Part shown: in pieces, positions 43,452-57,227 of the stretch
How the letters are laid out: each line of letters opens with the position of its first letter
How positions within the stretch are numbered: the first letter of the stretch is position 1
Assembly (NCBI RefSeq): GCF_041146345.1
Contig: NW_027191406.1
Span: 1,054,001 to 1,118,000 of the forward strand
From: Neodothiora populina
Taxonomy: Eukaryota
Length of the DNA stretch: 64,000 nucleotides
Direction of reading: 5' to 3'
Position numbers and translations under genes: made by a program
The notes under the pieces: model-generated
The model's input: the letters and a program-made list of their open reading frames with translations, nothing else
What the model was told of the DNA's origin: nothing
Databases searched by the model: none

Positions 43452-45837
43452 TCAATCTCCTTGTTGCTGTAATGTCCACCTCCGCTTGTGGACTCCCCTC
43501 TCTCTTGACACAAGCCCAGACGGAGCCGAGCCCCACAAGCCCTTCTGCGAAAGGCTCCTGTTCAAGCTGTTCGGCACTGCTGAACCAACAGCAGGCAAGT
43601 CGCTGATGGCGCTGTCGCTCTCGAGTTCCACTTCTCTCGCCTCGGCGGCAGCTTTGTGCTCGTTGGGTGTCAAACTACCAGATGTGTTCCTTGGCGAGAC
43701 GTTGTCCGTAGCTCTTTGTGCATCCAGAGCGAGTCGAGACCTGGACGAAGGTCGAGATGTCGGTCGTGACGTCGGTCGCGATGTTGGCTGAGACGCCGGA
43801 CGCGACGAGGGCCTAGATGCATCGGGAGAAATGGAGGAGTCCAGAGCGAAGTCGTGGCCAGGCGAGGGCGGCTTCTCGACACTTGGAGAAGACCACAATC
43901 CGGTGGGGCTGTTCGTGTTGACCTTCATCTCTTCGAGTGCCGACTGAACTTGTGCCGCCGCGGCCAAGCTATAAGTTCTCATTCGCTCCGGCCGTGCAGT
44001 TGCAACTGATCCTCGGCGCATACCGCTTGGTCCGATGGTAGAAGCCGATCTGCCAAGTCCGACTGGCTCGCCAATATTGACACCCGCGTCGGCAGCTGGG
44101 GAAGAATCGACACCGGTGAACAATTGAGGCCCGAAGCGTCGCCTCGAATCCGGCTTCTTCTGCGAAGACAGCAGAGGCGAGGAGGATCCTTGCGAAGTCT
44201 GGGCGGGGTCAACACCAGGACGTAAATGCTCAGAGGATGCGATGACTCTGAGATCGTAGGCGTTTCCGAGGCCATGGTCGGTCGAGTTGCGACGAACGGG
44301 AGGGCGAGCACGACCAAGCGGATCAGTATCCTCGGCGGCAGGCGTGGCCACAGCGCTGGGAGGCAAAGAAAAGTCGGCGTCCTCCTTGCGCACGGCGACT
44401 GTCAGAGATGCCATGCCCACATCTAATAGCACAGGCTGGTTGGTCAAGGCACCGATGAGGGCATTGCAGCCTGCACCGTGGGTGACAAGAATCAGCACCT
44501 CATCCACGTCTTCATCCTCTTCCGTCGGCGTGTGTCCTCTGGCGACCTCTTCGTCGTGATGGCGGCCGTACCAGTCAATCATGCTGTTTATTCCCCTCCT
44601 GAAGCGTCTGTGCATGGCGCTCCATTCCTCGCCATAGGAACCTCCGTCGCCCCAATAAAGAGGTTCGCGCATGCTGTCCCAGTGAATGTCGACGTCCACG
44701 CAAGAGTCCTTGGCATGCGCAACATAGCCACCGGGAATGGGGTCGGCAGGCGACATTGCATAAGTCGGCGTGGGAGGCACATATCCGGTGGAGCCATCGT
44801 GTTTGTCTGCGGGGATGCGGAAGGGACTCGATCGGCCGTGGGAGGATTTTCCGTGGTTGATCGAAGTGGGAGCGGTGCCGGAGCTGTTGGAGCGGTCTCT
44901 TCTGGTCGGGGCGGCATGATGACCTGTTTGGTCGGCGGAAGAGTGCCTGCCGGCTGCCCACATGCCCACTGCCTTGGGGGGCGTGGGGGTATAGTTCGCA
45001 ATCTCCTCGCTCTTCCTCATCAGATTCGCCTTTGCGCCTGCCAGCATCATGGCGCTGTTCGGCGGAGGCGTGATGGACTCGAAATAGTCGGGGGAAAGCC
45101 ACTCGCCCAGGAAGGCGTCGACGCGCAGAGTGACCCTGTCGGGCTGGGGAGGCAGCTCTGAGGTCGGCGACTTGAGAGCCTGCTGCTGGTGCTGGTGCTG
45201 CTGGTGATCCTTGTCGTCCTTGAGGTCTGGGATATGATGAAGGGGCTCGGGGATGGGCTCGAGTCTCGGCGAGTCGACAGCGTACAGTCTAGGCGACGAA
45301 GAGCGCAACTGACTCACGGCCTTGACTCTGGCATCACTGCCCTTTCTCGCCAGCGGGGGCAGTCCCTCGTACTGCGAGATACCGGCGCTGATGCCTATGC
45401 TGGTCTGGACACATCGTCGGAATGGTGATGAGTGTACGAAGATCTTGTGCTTTCTCTTCTTCTGTTTTGAGCTGCTGCCGTTCTGCTGCGCACTGTTGCT
45501 GTTGAATGATTCACCATTGCCATTGGGCTTGGGCGAGTTGGCGGGAGAACTGCTGGCGCTCTCGCTCTGCTGCTCGCGCGCCTGCAACAGACTGGCGATG
45601 CGCAGACCTAGAGCTCTCGACTGGATCCAGCCTCCGTATGTGAGCGGCGGGTCATAGGGTGTCGGAGAAGTGAGATGCCAGCTTCTGTCGGCTGCATCCA
45701 AGCGAGCTCCATGTCTACATGGCACAGTCAATTTCCTGGTTGATGCTGTTGCTGCTGCTGCATGATAAAACACGATCAGAGATGGCGATAGACTTGACTT
45801 ACCTGACAATGATGACGACTGCGGGCGCTTTCGCCAT
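43452..45837 (-). CDS. Phosphoglycerate-mutase-like histidine phosphatase family protein
   Basis: 'MAKAPAVVIIV|RHGARLDAAD' (intron 45715-45802), 'HSSPFRRCVQT', 'LGEWLSPDYF', 'LVTHGAGCNALIGAL'. Confidence 0.88.
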
Positions 45838-47199
45838 GGTTGCGGGGACCGACTATGCACGATGGCTGACGGTATCGGAATGAAACAACTAAAGTAAATT
45901 CCTTCGGTTGGTAGACAGGACTCAAATAGGCCGAATTATGTTGGGTCTTGTGGTACCGCGGTCGATCGAGTTACACAACAGAAGAAAAGAAAAAGTGGGA
46001 GATTTGGTTCAATGCAAAGTGTGCTTGGGATGTTGCGATATAGGAAAGCACATGGCCGAGAACAGAGAGAAAGAGTGTGAAGGCGAAAGAGAGCGAGATG
46101 GAGAAAGAGACAGTTGAAACACTAAATGGTTACTTTCGGTCTTAGTGCAACATTTACAACAAGAGAGAATGATCTCCGGGAGAATCGCCTCTTCTTTCTC
46201 GTTTTCTTTTAATGATTGGAAAGAGGCTTGTGACTACCGACTACTTGAGACGACCGCTTGCTTGGGTTGGCCACTACATCTTCTGATTCCTGGTCTTCTT
46301 CTTCTTCTTCTGCCGCCTCTGCCTCTTGACCCTCTTCTTTTGAGGCGAATAACACCTGCTTTTCACCTTATTCGGGCGCATCTATCACCGATTCCACAAC
46401 ACAATGCCTGCCCGCCGCTCGATCGCTCTACTTGCTCCGGCCCCGCGCGACGCCAGAAACCTTGTCGGCGTCTGCATCACTTGCATCACTGTGCACAGGT
46501 GCCGCATTTCATCATCATAATCCCTTCCCTTCTCTCAAAAGCTCCCACACTCTCCCTGTTCGCATGTGACGATTATGTGACCGGGAATGCTATCCTGTGA
46601 AAGTACAAGTCCCTCTCGACCCCACTGCTTCACTATTTGTCTGTCAAGTCTGCCCTATCGATTGTACGACTTCTTTTGTGCTTCTTCTCCACCCTGTCTA
46701 CTCCCCGGGACATTGTTGCCCGGATATATTACTAGACGGGTAAATCGAACCCTTGGTCACACTACCTACCTACTGATCAACAGCAGATTTTGACGGACTT
46801 CATTTCACTTGCTTGGTCGCTCATGTGGTTTCTAGTCTGTTCAATATCCTCGCCACGGTAATGATCCACGCGCACATAAGCCGAGACAGTGATCCGTAGA
46901 CACAATCTCTCATCCTCTGATGCGAGGTGAGAAGTCTCGTCACAGGTACATGTCTCTCCATTGCCGCAGCTTCAAGCGGGGCATGAGGGGAGGGGCGAGG
47001 CCGACGCCATTTCATCGGTAGCTAACGCTCTGGTCTCGTTTCAGGAACGTCATGTTTCTTGATCCTGGACCATACAAGCTGGCCCTGTCGAACACGGCGA
47101 GCAAGACTTTTAGGATCTATGTTTCCGCTACAATCAGGCAATCCTTGATATGTCGTTGAATACTACCCTAAATAAGGTATGCATGCTTATGTGTGCTAT

Positions 47200-48143
47200 T
47201 TACTGCAGATAATCCTCTCCTGTCTCCTTGGCAATCACGTCAAAAAGTGGCTTGGCCGAGAAATACCCTGCGCTGGGCGTGCCGATGGCGTTATATGTAA
47301 ACTGCGCATCCTCTTCATCAATCTTGATCGTTTGACCTCCTCTGCCACCTGCTGCTGCATCTGCCATCAGCTGTGCGTGTGCACACTTCTCTGCGCTGAT
47401 GAACCAGAACACCGCTTCCTCGACCGTTCGACCGACCGTGAGAAGTCCGTGGTTCTGTAGAAGAGCCGCTTTCTTGCCACCGAGGCATCGCGCGATATTG
47501 TGCCCTTCCTCTGCTGCCAGTACGATGCCGTTGAACGACTCATACACGACGTGGTCATTGTGGAAGGCGCAAGAGTCTTGCGTGATGGTGTCGAGTAAAC
47601 GGCCAAGCGTGCAGAATGACCTGGCATACAGACTGTGGCTATGAGCTGCCGCCATCACGTCTGGTCGGGCCTGATGGATGGCCGAGTGGATCATGAAAGC
47701 TGCAGTATTCAAGAGCCTGTATGCTCCTCCCTCAATGACCTCGCCCTCCTCACTGACCCTAATCAGATCAGACTTGTTGATCAGAGAGAAGGCAAGACCA
47801 AAAGGATTGACCCAGAAGGTATCTGGCTCCACTGGATCACGGATAGTGATGTGCCCAGCTACTCCTTCGTCGAAGCCGTATTTGCCGAAGATACGGAAGG
47901 CTGCCGCCAGGCGACCCTTGAGATATTCGCGCTCCTCATGCTTGTCTTCGAACTTGGGAGGTCTGCGTTGGTCGTCAGCTTTGAACACCGATATCGTCCG
48001 AAACATAGAGGTCACCTTGGGAACTTGGCCTGTTTGCCCTTGGCCGATGACTTTGCGATGCCAGGCTCATTGGTGGCGGTCGAAGGCGTATGGTCGTCGT
48101 CCTCGCCTTCGTATCCGTTGGCAGTTACTGCATGAGGCGCCAT
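47200..48143 (-). CDS. Class II aldolase/adducin family protein
   Basis: 'FP|RPPKFEDK' (intron 47963-48015), 'FDEGVAGHITIRDP', 'IHSAIH', 'AAHSHS', 'LLQNHGLLT'. Confidence 0.92.
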
Positions 48144-48944: not shown

Positions 48945-49051
48945 GCAGCTTTAGCTCACTTGGGAGAGCGCCAGACTGAAGTTCCACTTTAGTCCAACAA
49001 GCATTTCTGTGCGGTATCTGGAGGTACTGTGTTCGATCCACAGAAGCTGCA
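48945..49051 (+). tRNA. tRNA-Phe(GAA) with 34-nt intron (48982-49015)
   Basis: GCAGCTTTAGCTCACTTGGGAGAGCGCCAGACTGAAG-intron-ATCTGGAGGTACTGTGTTCGATCCACAGAAGCTGCA. Stems pair and T-rich sequence follows. Confidence 0.93.
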
Positions 49052-49261: not shown

Positions 49262-50769
49262 TCACTCTCCATCAAGATCGCCCTCATCTTCTGCATCAGC
49301 ATCGCCTAGTACAACATCCCCTTCCTCATCCTCATCTCCGCCCTTAGAAGCGACGACAGCAGCAGCACTGCCATTAGTCGCCATCTCAGTCTTGTCCAGA
49401 CTCTCCTGGTCAAGAACCACAAACCCCTCCCTGACACGCATGGTCTTAATCAGCCCAATCCTGATTTTACAACTCGCATGCGCATTCCAACTACTGTCCT
49501 GCCCCTGAGTAAGGTTTGCACCATCACGAACACGACGAGGACACGTGCGGCTGTGATGCATTCGGACATCTTCAGGGTGACTGAAGCCTGCGCCGCAGAG
49601 GGCGTGGATGTAGGGTTTGTTGGGTCTGGAGAGGATTGCGCGGCGAGTCGGGTAGATGGGCCCTACATGAGTGATGTTTGAAGCGGAGATGAGAGTTTGG
49701 TTGGAGGATTTTGGGGTTGGATGTTTTGCTTCTGGTGAGTCCTCTGCGACATCTTCCTGAATCTCCGGAATCGAGACGTAGAGCTCGGGATTGGTGCCCA
49801 ATTTCGCGAGAGCCTCGAGCGTCTCGTCTAGCTGTTGCTTGCTCAGTAGTGGGAGTTCGGATGCTGCTTCACCTGCGGCTAATGTTGCTTGATTGCCTAT
49901 CTTGGCTAGAGACGAGAACATCTCGCCCAGCCGCTCTTCGCTCAGTGGCGGGAATGTCGTAGCCGGTCTTGTCATGGTCTCGTCCGACTGTATCAGAGTG
50001 GCTTCATTTGAGCTGTTATCAGCAGCCGACACTGATTGCAGGTCTTCCATTTGTTGGAATGAAGTGACTCTGTTCTGAAGAGGGTGATCTGAGGTAGAGT
50101 GCTCGAAGTACGCATCGGTACCGGAGGCGACATTCTGATCACGCATCAATCGATGTATGCATTCCACGACTGCATCTCTCCCAGCAGTCATAGGCTGGGT
50201 AGACTCATTGGTAGAAGATGGAAGACTAGACATCGTCTCATGAACCACGTTAGCGCCTTGAGTTATCTGCGCAAGCAACGATCCGGGTTCAGCACCAATC
50301 GCTGCGCGGGAGCCTTGTTGCGGGCCACTCCTGACCCTCATCGTAGGCAGCCCACTAACAGGAAGTCCAATCCGAAGGCACAGCTGCAAGAAGTCGTCGG
50401 CATCGCCCAGTGCCTCTTCGACAGCAGCATGGACCCACTCAAGATCTTGTGTCTCGTACTGCGCAACGAAGACGCGGAAATTGGTAACGAGATGATGAGC
50501 CGCAGCCCCATGGAAAAGTGCAAGCACCAAGACGTAGAGCTGGAACTTGTTCACACGTCCCTCGTTGTAGCAGCGACACAGTGCTGCGAAGGTGTCACAG
50601 ATATCTGGTCTGCTGTGGAAGTGATCCTAATGCATCGTTAGCAACGCTTTTTGTACAGAAACGCAGGACCGGGACTCACGACGACTGTACGGTAGAAATG
50701 AAGCTGTGCTACTGGAGAAGTCGGGTTACCAATCGTGTTTCTCAGGTCGTCGAAGTTGATCAGTGCCAT
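49262..50769 (-). CDS. Hypothetical protein (~484 aa) with an N-terminal Sin3-like PAH domain and a C-terminal zinc-finger-like motif
   Basis: Exon 1 50680-50769 and intron 50627-50679 (GTGAGT...GCTAAC...TAG) join in frame to ORF 49262-50554. Confidence 0.7.
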
Positions 50770-51874
50770 GCTGGCGGCTTGTATCACATCAGGTCTTGGT
50801 TGGATGTAAAACGATAAGAAAATATTCACTTCGTTTGATGGTCGATGTAGCGAGCAATCCGGTGCCTTTGTCACGAAGTGACAGAACGATCACTTACGGC
50901 GGTCCCGTATGTCACACGCCTCTTCTACACAAGGTATGACATCGCCTCTTCCACGCTGCGTATGACATCGTGCTGTCGAAACCGGGGCAAGGAGACCAGC
51001 ATGGACAAAGCAGAGATCGACTCGTCTTACTGGCTCCTTGCAGTCCTCGGCATGTACTTCATAGTGTAGACTATTGCTGGTTCTCACGGTCTGTGGGAAA
51101 CGTGTTCGTGCCTCTATAGCTCATGCTTTGTTCTTGATAGAGCTTACAATAAGACACAGATGGCCATGTTAAACTATGATACTCCGCGGTCGTCCTACAC
51201 TAGGCAATATCAGAGCTTCGAGGAAAGATATCGAGAGTATGAGTTGTTGGCTCGATCGTTTTAAAGCTCACTATAGGTGCCTTTTCTACCTATCATTGTG
51301 AGTGTACGCAAGGACGGGACTGCTGGAACATTGAGTTGAACAGCAGTGCAGGCGTTTCATCTGTTTATAAACCGCTCTGTCTTGGTTCACCACACTAAGG
51401 CGGCATATGACGAATCGTTGTATCAGTCTCTAGAGACGTGCTCGAGTCGTGTATTACGCCGGTTATCGTGTGTTAAGGTCGTACGGCCACCAGTATCAAT
51501 ACCGTGTATCGCCCCAGTCAGTGTCGAGCACATACTCACTTTCACGTTCCAGAGGCCGCATCTCTCAACAGGCAAAAAGCATAATATCGTTCTTGTCATC
51601 GCCACCAAGCAAAACCAACTCCCATAGCCTGTTTCGTTATACGAATGGTCCAACAAGTAAAATAAGAGCGTCGGAGTATCTTCAAGGCCAAGACGTCCCA
51701 ACTTCCTTCCGCCGCTCCAGGTATTGCTTCAAACCAAAAACCGACCAAAAAGAAAACCCGAAACTCACAACTTCACATCCGTCGCCGTTCGGCCTACACT
51801 CTCAACCCCGCATCCATGACGTGAAGCAGAGCAACAAGGGAGCGAAAAGTGAGCAAAAAGTGAAAATAGAATAA

Positions 51875-51965
51875 TGGTCAGTACGGGGGTCGAACCCGCG
51901 ACCTTGGCGTGCCAGATAGGCAGAAGCTATTAGCACCACGCTCTAACCAACTGAGCTAACCGACC
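51875..51965 (-). tRNA. tRNA-Ile(AAT) with ~17-nt intron
   Basis: GGTCGGTTAGCTCAGTTGGTTAGAGCGTGGTGCTAATA-intron-ACGCCAAGGTCGCGGGTTCGACCCCCGTACTGACCA. Confidence 0.95.
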
Positions 51966-52758
51966 TGGTTTCGATGGAAGGCGGAAGGTCAGTAGGGTAT
52001 ATGATTCTTCAGAAAAAGCGTGTGCTATGCTTAGGAGGGAGATGGTGTGCTCAGGGTAAGGACTGCGATAGCTGCTGTAGTGTACATGAGTTCGCTTGTA
52101 TGACTGATCGTAATGATGAGCATTGTGTAGAAGTCCAGTGGAGTAGCGGCTCATGTCTTGTCGAAGGCTTTCATGCTGCTAAGATCAAGTGACGGCTTGC
52201 TGGGCTGATGGGTAGTCTATACGCCTTGGAGTGAGTGCAAGATCACTCGAGGGTCAGTCGACATGCTAGCAGCCTTTTCGGTGCATTTGGCGCCGTCTGT
52301 TCAGTAGTCTATTATCGATACGCACTTGAAGGTGTTCAGCTCTTGATTCTAAGGATAAGTAGGAAGAGTGGCGAACATGACACGCTGTCTGCGTCGCAAA
52401 AGGGAAGATTGCACAAGACACTGACCAAACAACGACAACACATCAAGGTCAACCATGTGTTAACCACAACGCGCCTTATCCACGTCGAACAACGAACGAG
52501 TATAAATACCGACGAATATAGACTCAACATCAGATCGAGACAATGACATCCCACAAGATTGACCACGACGAAGTCATAGATGGTATGAAACAAAATCATG
52601 AATCCAGAGTAGCTTAGGACCGGGTCGCCCTAGATTGTTTTGTAGTTCACACCAGGTGCCCCCCACGCTCGTTCATCTTGATCTCAAGCGATGCTAGAAT
52701 ATCATATTTGGCAATTTACACTTAGTGTATATCACGTGATGGAAACATCCTCTCTCCT

Positions 52759-52829
52759 GCTTCGGTGGTCCAACGGTAGGATAATCGCCTTCCAAGCGAT
52801 TGGCCCGGGTTCGACTCCCGGTCGATGCA
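52759..52829 (+). tRNA. tRNA-Gly(TCC), intronless
   Basis: GCTTCGGTGGTCCAACGGTAGGATAATCGCCTTCCAAGCGATTGGCCCGGGTTCGACTCCCGGTCGATGCA, then a T6 terminator. Confidence 0.9.
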
Positions 52830-53152
52830 AAAATATTTTTTGCCGTTTTTGGCCTTTTCTCTTCTTACCAGGTCTCTCATTGCGTGGCTGGCAGACCAAA
52901 TTTTCTTGGGGTTTTCTGCTTTTTTTTTATAAATTGAAAGGACAAAAGATCGAGCTGGAGATTGCAACATTACAGCCGAGTAGGTACTGTACAGTACTTT
53001 TACCTTGACAACTACCCTACATTTCGTATGAATGCGTGATTGGTCTGTTTCCAATTCCTCGATCGCAGTCCAGTGAGCAACACATGCAACCCCTACCAAC
53101 CACGGGCATAAACAGTATGTATTCATTCAAGAATTGACAATCTTCATCAATA

Positions 53153-53238
53153 GCACCATTGGGTTAGTGGTAAACTTGGTCGTTGCCAGCTTTCGCAGCA
53201 AGTTCGACCAGCCCCGTGTTCGATTCACGGATGGTGCA
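53153..53238 (+). tRNA. tRNA-Gly(GCC) with ~15-nt intron
   Basis: GCACCATTGGGTTAGTGGTAAACTTGGTCGTTGCCA-intron-TCGACCAGCCCCGTGTTCGATTCACGGATGGTGCA, then T-runs. Confidence 0.93.
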
Positions 53239-53565: not shown

Positions 53566-55296
53566 TCAGAACCCAGCCGTGACACTGGCGAGCACAGTGG
53601 CCGTGGGCATGACGCCTCCTGAACAAACACATGCGCCGCCATCAATACTGCTCAAGGGCGCTCCATTAGTGCACCACGCACTGCTTGTCCAAGGTACGGT
53701 AGTCGTTGTCGCAGCGCCACTACCAATCGCGACTGTCTCGGCCTTTACGAGAACAGGGATGATAGCGCCTGTGACGAGCGAAAAGACTCGATGACCCAAG
53801 ACTCGCAGAAGGGATGCCGCTTCGCCAGAGTGCGTGGTGATGGAGACGACGCGTGCGGCTTTGTCGGTTGCGAAGACGCTGTCGAGGGCGATCTTGGAGC
53901 GGTAGTCCTTGGCCGAGTCGGTCTCGGCCGTGATACCGTTCCAGATCTCGTCCGTCTCGGTCAATGTGTCCTCGATGCGGAATGTAGGGAACAAGTGCTC
54001 GATGTAGGTCTTGTTGCTTCGGTGGTCGCATGTGTGAGTGCTGATGGTTTCGCGGAAGAGTTCTTTGACTGTTGGGATGAAGGGGTCGTCTGCTGGTAAG
54101 TTGAGGTTCGAGTAGGTGTAGTTTGCCGTCTTCAAACAGCGCGTGAGTGGTGATACGTAGAAGGTCTGTGGAGCTACGATCTTCTGGCTCCTCATCAAGT
54201 CGGACCAGAAGGCGTTGGCTTTGAATGCTTGAGCGATGCCATCTGTAGTCAGGTCTGCATCATCCCATGTTGAGGTACCGTTTCCGTTCAATTCAGACCA
54301 ATAGCACTATGACGCGTCAGTATTCGCAGGAGAAGCTCGTGTCGAGGCGTTTGCTTACGTTCCATGCAGGAGTACCATAACCAATCTGAGCAGCATTATG
54401 ATAGCCTTCGCCGTGACGACCGATGAATAGCAGCTTGTAAGTGACATTACTGGCCGCTTGTTGATTGAGGTTCACAAGTAGTCTATCAAATCTCTGCCAT
54501 TGAGTAAGATCCACAGAAGCCTTGTTGTCGGTCGTATAAGTCTGGTTGATCAGACCAAAGTTGGTAGTAGTCTGCTTAACGTTAGCCCGGATCGTCACGA
54601 AGGACAGATCATCTCACGTACATAGTCAAAGCTGCTTGCAGCGGTAGTGTTCAAGTCCTGCAGAAAGTAACCTCCAACAGTGGAATATCTGATATACTCG
54701 GTACCATCACCAACAGTCGGCAAAGATGCCGTAGAGGGAGCTGCAGCCGAGGTTACTATAGAAAAGGTTGTGGCAGATGGTTTGGTTGTAGTCAGAGGTG
54801 CAGCGGTTGCCGATGAAGTGATCGAGGTAATTTTGCCGTTCAATACCATGCGGGCGGCTCTGCAGTGAGAGCACGCATGGGACGGGCCTGCCTTGCTTTT
54901 CAAGTAACATGCAGTACCTAAGTCTTCGTCAGAGATTTGTTATGTCCATCTCCAGTCCTCGAAAGTGTCTATTACCAGACATGGTGATGTCACTGCATCC
55001 TTCAGTCGCAACGCATTGCGCAATGCAGTCTGCAATCTTGTTGCTATAGATCTTGCATGAGCATTAGTCGACGATTGTACCGTGACGCTCCTATCTCAGT
55101 ATTGCTCTCATACCTGCACGTGTGTGATATCATTCCCAGCACGATCAAGACCACATTCTACCTCAAAGACCGCGCCGTTAGATGCTGTGTATTGCTTGCC
55201 ATTGGACTCTGGGCAAGTAGGGTTAGGCGATAATACAATGGCAGGAACGAATGCTGCAGAGGCAAGTGTAACGAGTGAAAGCCTGAACAGAGCCAT
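53566..55296 (-). CDS. Secreted Pmu1-like histidine phosphatase with an N-terminal PAN/Apple-like domain (5 exons)
   Basis: Signal peptide; 'CPESNG...VECGLDRAGND...DCIAQC...GC...CYLKS'; S/T linker; 'LFIGRHGEGYHN', 'VSPLTRCLKT', 'HTCDHRS', 'ITTHSG'. Confidence 0.85.
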
Positions 55297-56165: not shown

Positions 56166-57227
56166 TCAGTCGTCTAACGTGTAATTGTGGCGAGTGCGAG
56201 CCACGTCCTTGCGCATAGCCTGACCAGATCCTGTGAAGCCCACTGCGAGGTGTGTTAGCTATGAGCTTATCATTGCAAGGTCACGCATGTTCTTTGACTG
56301 ACCTCGTGCTGTTGGCGCTTCTCCGGTGCGGAACATGCTGTCCTTCTTTGCGACCTTTGCAACTTTGCCAGTAGAAGCCTTGTTCTGCCAGGCCTGCCAG
56401 TTGTTCTTGCTACTCTCGAGTGCTTTTGACGTTCTGGCCTTTTTGGCGTTCTTGGGCTTATCATCGCCGGTGAGCATTTTGGCAGCCTCCTTCTTCAAGG
56501 CGCTGGCCTTCTCGGGATCGATGCTGGCCGCAGCGGATATCACGCCCGGGATCGGAGTCGCAGAGATAGGAGCAGCCGGAGCTGAGGCAAGCGGAGACCC
56601 ATCAGCCCTGCGCTTCTGACCAGCCGAAGATGCAGCATTCGTGGCAGACGCTAAGGGACGAATATCGTTCGCACGCACGGTCTCAGTGCCAGTGTAGCCG
56701 TCGAATTTGACCGTGTAGATGGGGTTGACCGAGGAACCAGTGATGGAAATGATGCGAGCCTCGTAGAACTGCTTGTCGCCAGCATACTTGGCTGAGACGG
56801 TGTCATTGACATTGAATGTGGCTTGGGGCTTCTTCTCGTCTGCGGGAGAGGGGTTTACTGAGTTTTTGCGACAGGCAGGATGGTCCTCCTTCTTCCACTT
56901 GTCACCACTTGCACTTGCACCTGCACTTGCACCTGCACTTGCACCTGCACTTGCAGCAGCAGGAGTCGGAGCGGCGGAGGCGGAGGCGGAATTGGACGCC
57001 GAGACGGCAGCTATTTTGGCATCGATATCAGCAAGCTGACCTATGACTTCGGATTTCATGTCAATGGCGTCTTGGTAGTCTGGCATCTCGGTGAGGATAT
57101 CCTCGACATCCTTGAGCTGTGTGGACGCTGTCAGCCAAAGCCCGCCGGCTCTTGGTTAGAGGAAGCATGCGCTTACGTTTGCGACATATTGTTCGCGTTC
57201 GAGCTGCAGTTGAGCTAAAGTTGCCAT
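56166..57227 (-). CDS. spf30: Tudor-domain splicing factor Spf30/SMNDC1
   Basis: N-terminal coiled coil, Tudor 'VSAKYAGDKQFYEARI...VKFDGY', 'KDSMFRT...R|VGFTGSG'. Introns 57117-57176 and 56243-56302. Confidence 0.85.

Follow-up and report, generated by a model that had tools for sequence, protein, structure and literature searches.

The stretch of DNA considered here, hereafter the window, comprises 64,000 nucleotides from the fungus Neodothiora populina (NCBI RefSeq assembly GCF_041146345.1, contig NW_027191406.1, positions 1,054,001 to 1,118,000 of the forward strand). Within it, on the minus strand, lies a gene of two exons (49262..50769, from ATG to stop) whose product of 484 residues combines an N-terminal paired amphipathic helix (PAH) domain, a linker of about 230 residues, a conserved module of about 115 residues that we refer to as the zinc module, and an acidic tail. 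Most of what is known of PAH domains concerns the Sin3 co-repressor, in which they serve as docking sites. It is against this background that we describe the gene, its two conserved domains and the family of fungal proteins to which they belong, and consider what such a protein might do.

The gene and its splicing

Exon 1 (50680..50769, minus strand) contributes 30 codons, residues 1-30, and encodes the first helix of the PAH domain. An intron of 53 nucleotides (50627..50679, minus strand; GTGAGT...GCTAAC...TAG) separates it from exon 2 (49262..50626, minus strand), which holds the 454 codons for residues 31-484 (50626-49265) and closes with a TGA stop codon at 49264-49262 on the same strand. 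Judged by its GT..CTAAC..AG signals, the intron is of the textbook fungal type. The start codon at 50769, with A at -3 and G at +4, is the first in-frame ATG past the upstream stop of its open reading frame (ORF 50638..50889). Without splicing, the frame of exon 1 stops after 45 residues, and the long ORF in the frame of exon 2 has its first methionine not before residue 125.

An earlier note on this DNA had read a spliced N-terminus that the track of ORFs had missed, and the reading proved correct, for the product of the two exons is letter for letter the database protein P0003, named 'hypothetical protein AAFC00_004278 [Neodothiora populina]' by NCBI and 'HNH nuclease domain-containing protein' by UniRef100. 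The protein strings quoted in that note are likewise all present in the product, the N-terminal one at residues 22-84, the two helices at 258-274 and 291-307, and the finger at 369-392. Further, the alignment of the protein family described below crosses the exon junction (residues 30/31) gap-free, and no other comparative evidence at hand speaks as strongly for the splice. Word-index searches made with exon 2 and with an alignment of three sequences returned the same three proteins.

Two conserved domains, a linker and an acidic tail

The N-terminal domain, or N-module (residues 19-115; 50372..50715 with the intron included, minus strand), is a PAH domain homologous to those of Sin3, a four-helix bundle to which one or two conserved helices have been added, and it is the only PAH segment in the protein. 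Pfam searches of the 484-residue protein at E<=10 returned no PAH, C2H2, Sin3, RING or HNH family, the sole match of the single sequence being a sub-threshold DUF2028 in the linker, and phmmer of the whole protein against the Protein Data Bank (PDB) gave matches at E>0.7 only. Since the single-sequence Pfam scans were empty, a profile of aligned N-modules was used, for which 40 of the 45 recovered were kept; those dropped were P0024 (a near copy of P0021), P0027 and P0061 (irregular alignment), and P0053 and P0062 (truncated).

Searched against all PDB chain sequences, the profile returned 20 matches at E<=10, and the top 16 were all Sin3/Pst chains, 12 of them at E<=1e-3; the other four lay at E>=0.19. 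The best were Schizosaccharomyces pombe Pst1 (2.6e-10) and yeast Sin3 (1.7e-9), with PAH2 as the best aligned stretch and PAH1 as the second. These alignments span all four helices and keep the hallmarks of the PAH domain, including the closing 'LL..F..FLP'. In a leave-one-out profile the window protein reached 88.6 bits, while none of 1000 shuffles of its first 130 residues scored above 3.8. Scanned singly at E<=10, 25 of the 40 N-modules matched the Pfam model PAH_ZNF598 (best 1.3e-6) and 6 of the 40 the Pfam model PAH (best 5.7e-4). Among the full-length relatives PAH_ZNF598 was found at E<=0.01 in 8 of 62, and the curated cut-off of that model, PF23202, which lies at 25 bits, is exceeded by P0064 (25.6) and P0071 (25.8).

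Predicted structures point the same way. The AlphaFold2 model built from the 40-row alignment (mean predicted local distance difference test score, pLDDT, 83; predicted template-modelling score 0.75; core pLDDT >90) has helices at residues 19-32, 37-51, 57-70 and 74-87, followed by extra helices at 93-103 and 106-115. A Foldseek comparison of this model with the PDB places Sin3 PAH domains at ranks 1-4, led by 6xaw_A (template-modelling (TM) score 0.84 by target, root-mean-square deviation 1.1 A, 64 columns) and 2czy (TM score 0.77); the Foldseek E-values are weak, 0.74 and worse, as is to be expected of 65 residues. The four-helix pattern that the earlier note had seen by eye is hence backed by profile searches, predicted models and the comparison of the family, and the structural check against the Sin3 PAHs which it had proposed came out in its favour. 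Its sequence check against PF02671 gave a divided answer, in that the spliced protein itself has no match at E<=10 while six of the family's N-modules do, and its view of Sin3 as the nearest kin has to be amended, the closest Pfam model being that of the ZNF598 PAH and not the Sin3 PAH model.

Comparison with known PAH proteins brings out several differences. Sin3 and Pst1-3 (PF02671; PDB 6xaw, 2cr7, 2czy, 8i03) carry three or four PAHs, whereas the window protein carries one; as had been suspected, neither Sin3_corepress, the histone deacetylase (HDAC) interaction domain, nor the Sin3 C-terminal domain was detected by Pfam at E<=10, and the PAH is fused to the zinc module. Unlike in the Sin3 PAHs, two residues are inserted between helices 3 and 4 in the N-modules of the family, and helix 4 is followed by a further conserved helix, W/Y..DL.W(L/V)..A(I/V)E. 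The likeness to the PAH of ZNF598/Hel2 (PF23202) lies in the match of most family N-modules to that Pfam model; in contrast to ZNF598/Hel2, the window protein has no RING, and its own sequence falls short of PF23202. ZNF598 also carries C2H2 fingers. As for the harmonin-homology domains (CCM2, harmonin, whirlin, RTEL1), the only sequence signal came from 1 of the 40 N-modules (CCM2_C, E 0.25), and the significant sequence matches of the N-modules are all to PAH domains and none to harmonin-homology domains.

The second conserved domain, the C-module (residues 344-459; 49340..49687, minus strand), runs from a strand through a finger and a W-x2-H-x-S-C motif to a hairpin and a helix. Its C2H2-derived finger (residues 369-392; 49541..49612, minus strand) reads Y-I-H371-x2-C374-x12-H387-H388-x3-C392, so that its ligands, H371-x2-C374-x12-H387-x4-C392, depart from the canonical pattern C-x2-4-C-x12-H-x3-5-H; in P0054 and P0057 the finger is fully canonical (C-x2-C-x12-H-x3-H). 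Across the alignment of 66 C-modules, numbered by the window protein, H387 and W410 are present in 66/66, C374 in 64/66, H380 in 61/66, C392 in 59/66, H350 in 57/66, H413 and C416 in 56/66 each, and H388 in 52/66, while column 371 holds histidine in 57/66 and cysteine in 7/66. All the strongly conserved columns are intact in the window protein. An exchange of histidine and cysteine at position 371 is what would be expected of a metal ligand, and argues against a catalytic histidine. Phe388 occurs only alongside Cys371, in 5 of the 7 modules with Cys371 and in 0 of the 57 with His371.

A profile of 17 C-modules, searched against the PDB sequences, matched classical C2H2 fingers. Tandem PRDM9 scored highest (1.1e-20), and tandem-finger proteins do so because their stretches add up; chains with a single finger were matched at 4.7e-6 (8h9h_G), 4.1e-5 (2eps_A) and 4.9e-4 (2eos_A). 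In these alignments 'PYIHalCG..F.HP..V..H' lies on 'PY.C..CG..F.....L..H' and H371 falls exactly on the first cysteine, which agrees with the earlier description of a C2H2-like finger with histidine in place of its first cysteine. With the classical fingers of PRDM9, ZBTB7A and PATZ1 the module shares (K/R)PY(I/V).x2.CG.xF.x5.(V/L).x2.H, aligned residue for residue, and its predicted model suggests a beta-beta-alpha element; it differs from them in having histidine as first ligand in 57/66 modules and in being a single finger set in a larger conserved domain with H380, W410, H413 and C416. In an index of 5.8 billion proteins the first matches outside the family were animal ZBTB49 and ZNF8. Pfam zf-C2H2 was matched by 3 of 17 C-modules (best E 0.058), none of which reaches the Pfam threshold.

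The AlphaFold2 model of the C-module (56 rows, mean pLDDT 82.7, core about 95) shows a strand at residues 351-355, the hairpin of the finger and its helix at 381-391, a variable loop of low confidence at about 399-409, a further hairpin (425-428/431-434) and a long helix (437-459). No structural relative of this fold was found in the PDB by Foldseek or VIA-align. The fourth ligand of the finger is likely an invariant cysteine 4 to about 12 residues after the histidine, and the conservation of H380, W410, H413 and C416 suggests a second metal or binding site.

The two domains are joined by a linker (residues 120-343) rich in serine, threonine, glutamine, glutamate and proline. Two stretches of it, residues 258-274 (49895..49945, minus strand) and 291-307 (49796..49846, minus strand), read as repeats of an amphipathic helix, with hydrophobic moments of 0.56 and 0.52; together with the top value of 0.62, at residues 179-196, these are the three highest in the linker, where the mean is 0.27 and the standard deviation 0.12. 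The earlier note had called the two helices similar, and they are indeed the best internal pair of 17-mers (BLOSUM62 score 41, 8/17 identical, 33 residues apart), a score reached in 0 of 200 shuffles, the best of which gave 38, although BLASTP with the two segments returned no alignment. No DNA-level repeat links them. To the eye, their hydrophobic spacing resembles that of the Mad-type Sin3-interaction helices. The acidic tail (residues 461-484; 49265..49336, minus strand), also seen earlier, has 14 aspartates or glutamates in its 24 residues and recurs in many relatives.

A family of the Dothideomycetes and the genomic setting of the gene

The stand-alone protein of the earlier note turned out to have many kin. 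The 64 matches at E<=1e-3 that phmmer gave against 1.84 billion representative proteins include 60 at E<=1e-10, and 8 of them reach E<=1e-30; the plan of PAH, linker and zinc module is common to at least 60 sequence clusters. On local re-alignment most relatives match in two separate stretches, at about residues 16-105 and 330-470, with an N-module scoring >5 bits in 44; many of the matches to the C-module only stem from very short contigs. The taxonomic survey that had been proposed thus found a family, and its organism-named members are Dothideomycetes throughout, in the genera Neodothiora, Oleoguttula, Cladosporium, Recurvomyces, Hortaea, Elasticomyces, Septoria, Meristemomyces, Cercospora and Friedmanniomyces, the last with several distinct clusters, together with a Teratosphaeriaceae sp. 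and 'Dothideomycetes sp. NU459'. The named members are annotated as 'hypothetical' or mislabelled.

Some proteins use the C-module in other settings. P0006, from an ENA contig (1210 residues), has four tandem C-modules (about 446-1007) followed by DUF3716, with no detectable PAH, an architecture from which it follows that the zinc module is usable on its own and in arrays. P0072 of Hortaea werneckii (1573 residues) has a C-module at 1252-1385 and a protein kinase domain at 211-350, and either a genuine fusion or the merging of gene models may lie behind it. In Alternaria (Pleosporales), P0083 and P0084 share only the finger and W..H.SC (positions 33-85 of the hidden Markov model (HMM), E about 4e-15 in a local search) and are without the hairpin and helix of the C-module; a PAH-like N-terminus seen by eye in P0083 was unsupported by the N-module HMM, Pfam or the PDB search.

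Other candidates were set aside. The last phmmer match, P0067, is a bacterial PEP-CTERM repeat protein and was taken as chance. A scan of metagenome DNA with the single protein gave two loci, neither of which matches the family HMMs: L001 matched over 13 query residues only, and L002 is a chance 'HPEDVRMHH' string in an unrelated frame. The ESM Atlas held only C2H2-flavoured or unnamed clusters, and its model of the protein is poor (pLDDT 0.43).

Turning to the chromosome, the gene sits between tRNA-Phe(GAA) (48945-49051, plus strand, with an intron) and tRNA-Ile(AAT) (51875-51965, minus strand), beyond which lie tRNA-Gly(TCC) (52758-52830, plus strand) and tRNA-Gly(GCC) (53153-53238, plus strand, with an intron), all four found by ARAGORN, as expected from the four-tRNA cluster reported earlier. 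At its gathering threshold Rfam lists 2 of the 4 and misses both intron-bearing ones. ARAGORN draws tRNA-Ile(AAT) with 91 bases and a long extra arm (Rfam 51.8 bits), which may be a real intron that the program has put into the variable region. The tRNA neighbourhood is without evident link to the gene. The neighbouring ORFs, all on the minus strand, are also unrelated to it: 47200-48066 has a class II aldolase/adducin-type domain (E 2.1e-44), 53566-54306 a histidine-phosphatase-like N-terminus (E 1.2e-5), 56259-57155 a sub-threshold match to a Crb2-type Tudor domain (E 6.4e-4), and 43452-45935 has 827 codons in which Pfam finds no family at E<=1e-3, and may be one more lineage-specific gene.

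Possible roles and significance

The reading that we favour, with a probability of about one half, is that the protein works in the nucleus as an adaptor or regulator. Its anchor on nucleic acid or chromatin would be the zinc module, this being the usual task of beta-beta-alpha fingers, and the cleft of the PAH would dock a short amphipathic helix, in the way that Sin3 PAHs dock the helices of Sin3-interaction domains (SIDs). The docked helix might belong to a transcription factor that acts as partner, or to the linker of the protein itself, in which case it could serve self-gating or self-association and oligomerisation; the acidic tail may add a further protein contact. A bolder version, which is possible but doubtful, would see the family as class-specific fungal regulators that couple a PAH to an undescribed zinc domain of about 115 residues (an H-C-H-C finger, a second His/Cys cluster, a three-stranded sheet and a long helix, with no fold match in the PDB), and whose own SID-like linker helices gate the protein, or polymerise it, through the PAH cleft.

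Several observations weigh against a nuclear adaptor of this kind. The window sequence matches no Pfam model for PAH or C2H2, so the domain calls rest on family profiles and predicted models: neither the whole protein nor its residues 1-130 match PF02671 or PF23202 at E<=10, and its own C-module has no Pfam C2H2 match even at that level. After helix 4 it has Ala85 and Tyr87 where the family has a nearly invariant proline and tryptophan. Zinc binding by the C-module is inferred from the conserved His/Cys columns and the exchange of histidine and cysteine at 371. The linker repeats do not keep their place in the six closest relatives; only segments that resemble them loosely, '..(I/L)L.(A/S)L(A/K/E)..', occur in P0010, P0061 and P0062. 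Moreover, no obvious nuclear localisation signal was noted in the window protein. A conserved basic motif between the modules, KKKxPxNGFR, which might serve as a nuclear localisation signal or in docking, is present in most relatives and degenerate here (about residues 124-137).

A special case of this reading, put forward in the earlier note, is a decoy or competitor of Sin3, which would titrate SID-bearing factors without bringing a deacetylase, or plug the Sin3 PAHs with SID-like helices of its own. Sin3 PAH2 and PAH1 lead the PDB sequence matches of the family profile, the protein is without an HDAC-interaction domain, and its linker helices are strongly amphipathic by their hydrophobic moments, all of which would fit; yet among the Pfam models the nearest is the ZNF598 PAH and not that of Sin3, and a strongly conserved zinc module together with many paralogues points to a function of the family's own and not to simple titration, so that we regard a decoy as unlikely. 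That closest model brings up a second possibility, a RING-less relative of ZNF598/Hel2 which would use PAH and C2H2-type finger in RNA or ribosome quality control. PF23202 is matched by 25 of the 40 N-modules at E<=10 and two members exceed its curated cut-off, but it is only this best Pfam model that suggests such a role, whereas no RING or other ZNF598 family was found in the window protein at E<=10 or is listed for 62 relatives at E<=0.01, and the N-module profile matches only Sin3 PAHs among the PDB sequences. In the window protein the PAH comes first and the finger last. A part in ribosome quality control appears to us quite improbable.

The UniRef100 name would make the protein an HNH (His-Me finger) nuclease, and a beta-beta-alpha element with a conserved histidine is common to His-Me nucleases and C2H2 fingers. 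The name is not reproduced by Pfam, which finds no HNH family at E<=10 in the whole protein or in 17 C-modules; the C-module profile matches only C2H2 fingers in the PDB, and in 7/66 modules cysteine takes the place of His371 at canonical C2H2 spacing, as would suit a metal ligand more than a general base. The label is probably wrong, a spurious signature match on a His-rich finger, and a nuclease is very unlikely. That the ORF is mis-annotated or decaying and without function could be argued from A85 and Y87, two family-conserved positions at which the window protein is the most divergent sequence; against this stand an open frame of 454 codons, a splice that makes the domain whole, the intact conserved columns of the C-module and a leave-one-out score of 88.6 bits, and decay is hardly credible. 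A nuclear adaptor or regulator is, in our view, the reading that these comparisons leave best placed.

PAH domains outside Sin3 are already known, as the Pfam model for the PAH of ZNF598 attests, and variants of C2H2 are common. What appears undescribed is the conserved pairing of PAH and zinc module, the finger with histidine for cysteine within a larger domain, and the restriction to Dothideomycetes. Literature searches found nothing on the PAH domain of ZNF598, nor on paired amphipathic helices with C2H2 in Dothideomycetes, with coverage that is thin for subscription journals; on Neodothiora populina they found taxonomy and biosurfactants only.

Overall, the C-module, with neither a Pfam model nor a structural relative found by Foldseek or VIA-align, is a candidate for a new domain definition, and its finger offers a natural case of the replacement of a cysteine ligand by histidine in a C2H2-type finger. 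Were the self-gating reading true, the protein would represent a self-contained, HDAC-free version of the docking logic of Sin3. More broadly, a conserved family of PAH and zinc module proteins with multiple paralogues would show that the PAH also serves away from Sin3, as a portable unit for docking peptides, and does so in a class of fungi that includes many plant pathogens and stress-tolerant black yeasts. In practical terms, about 60 clusters of 'hypothetical proteins' can now be treated as one family open to test.

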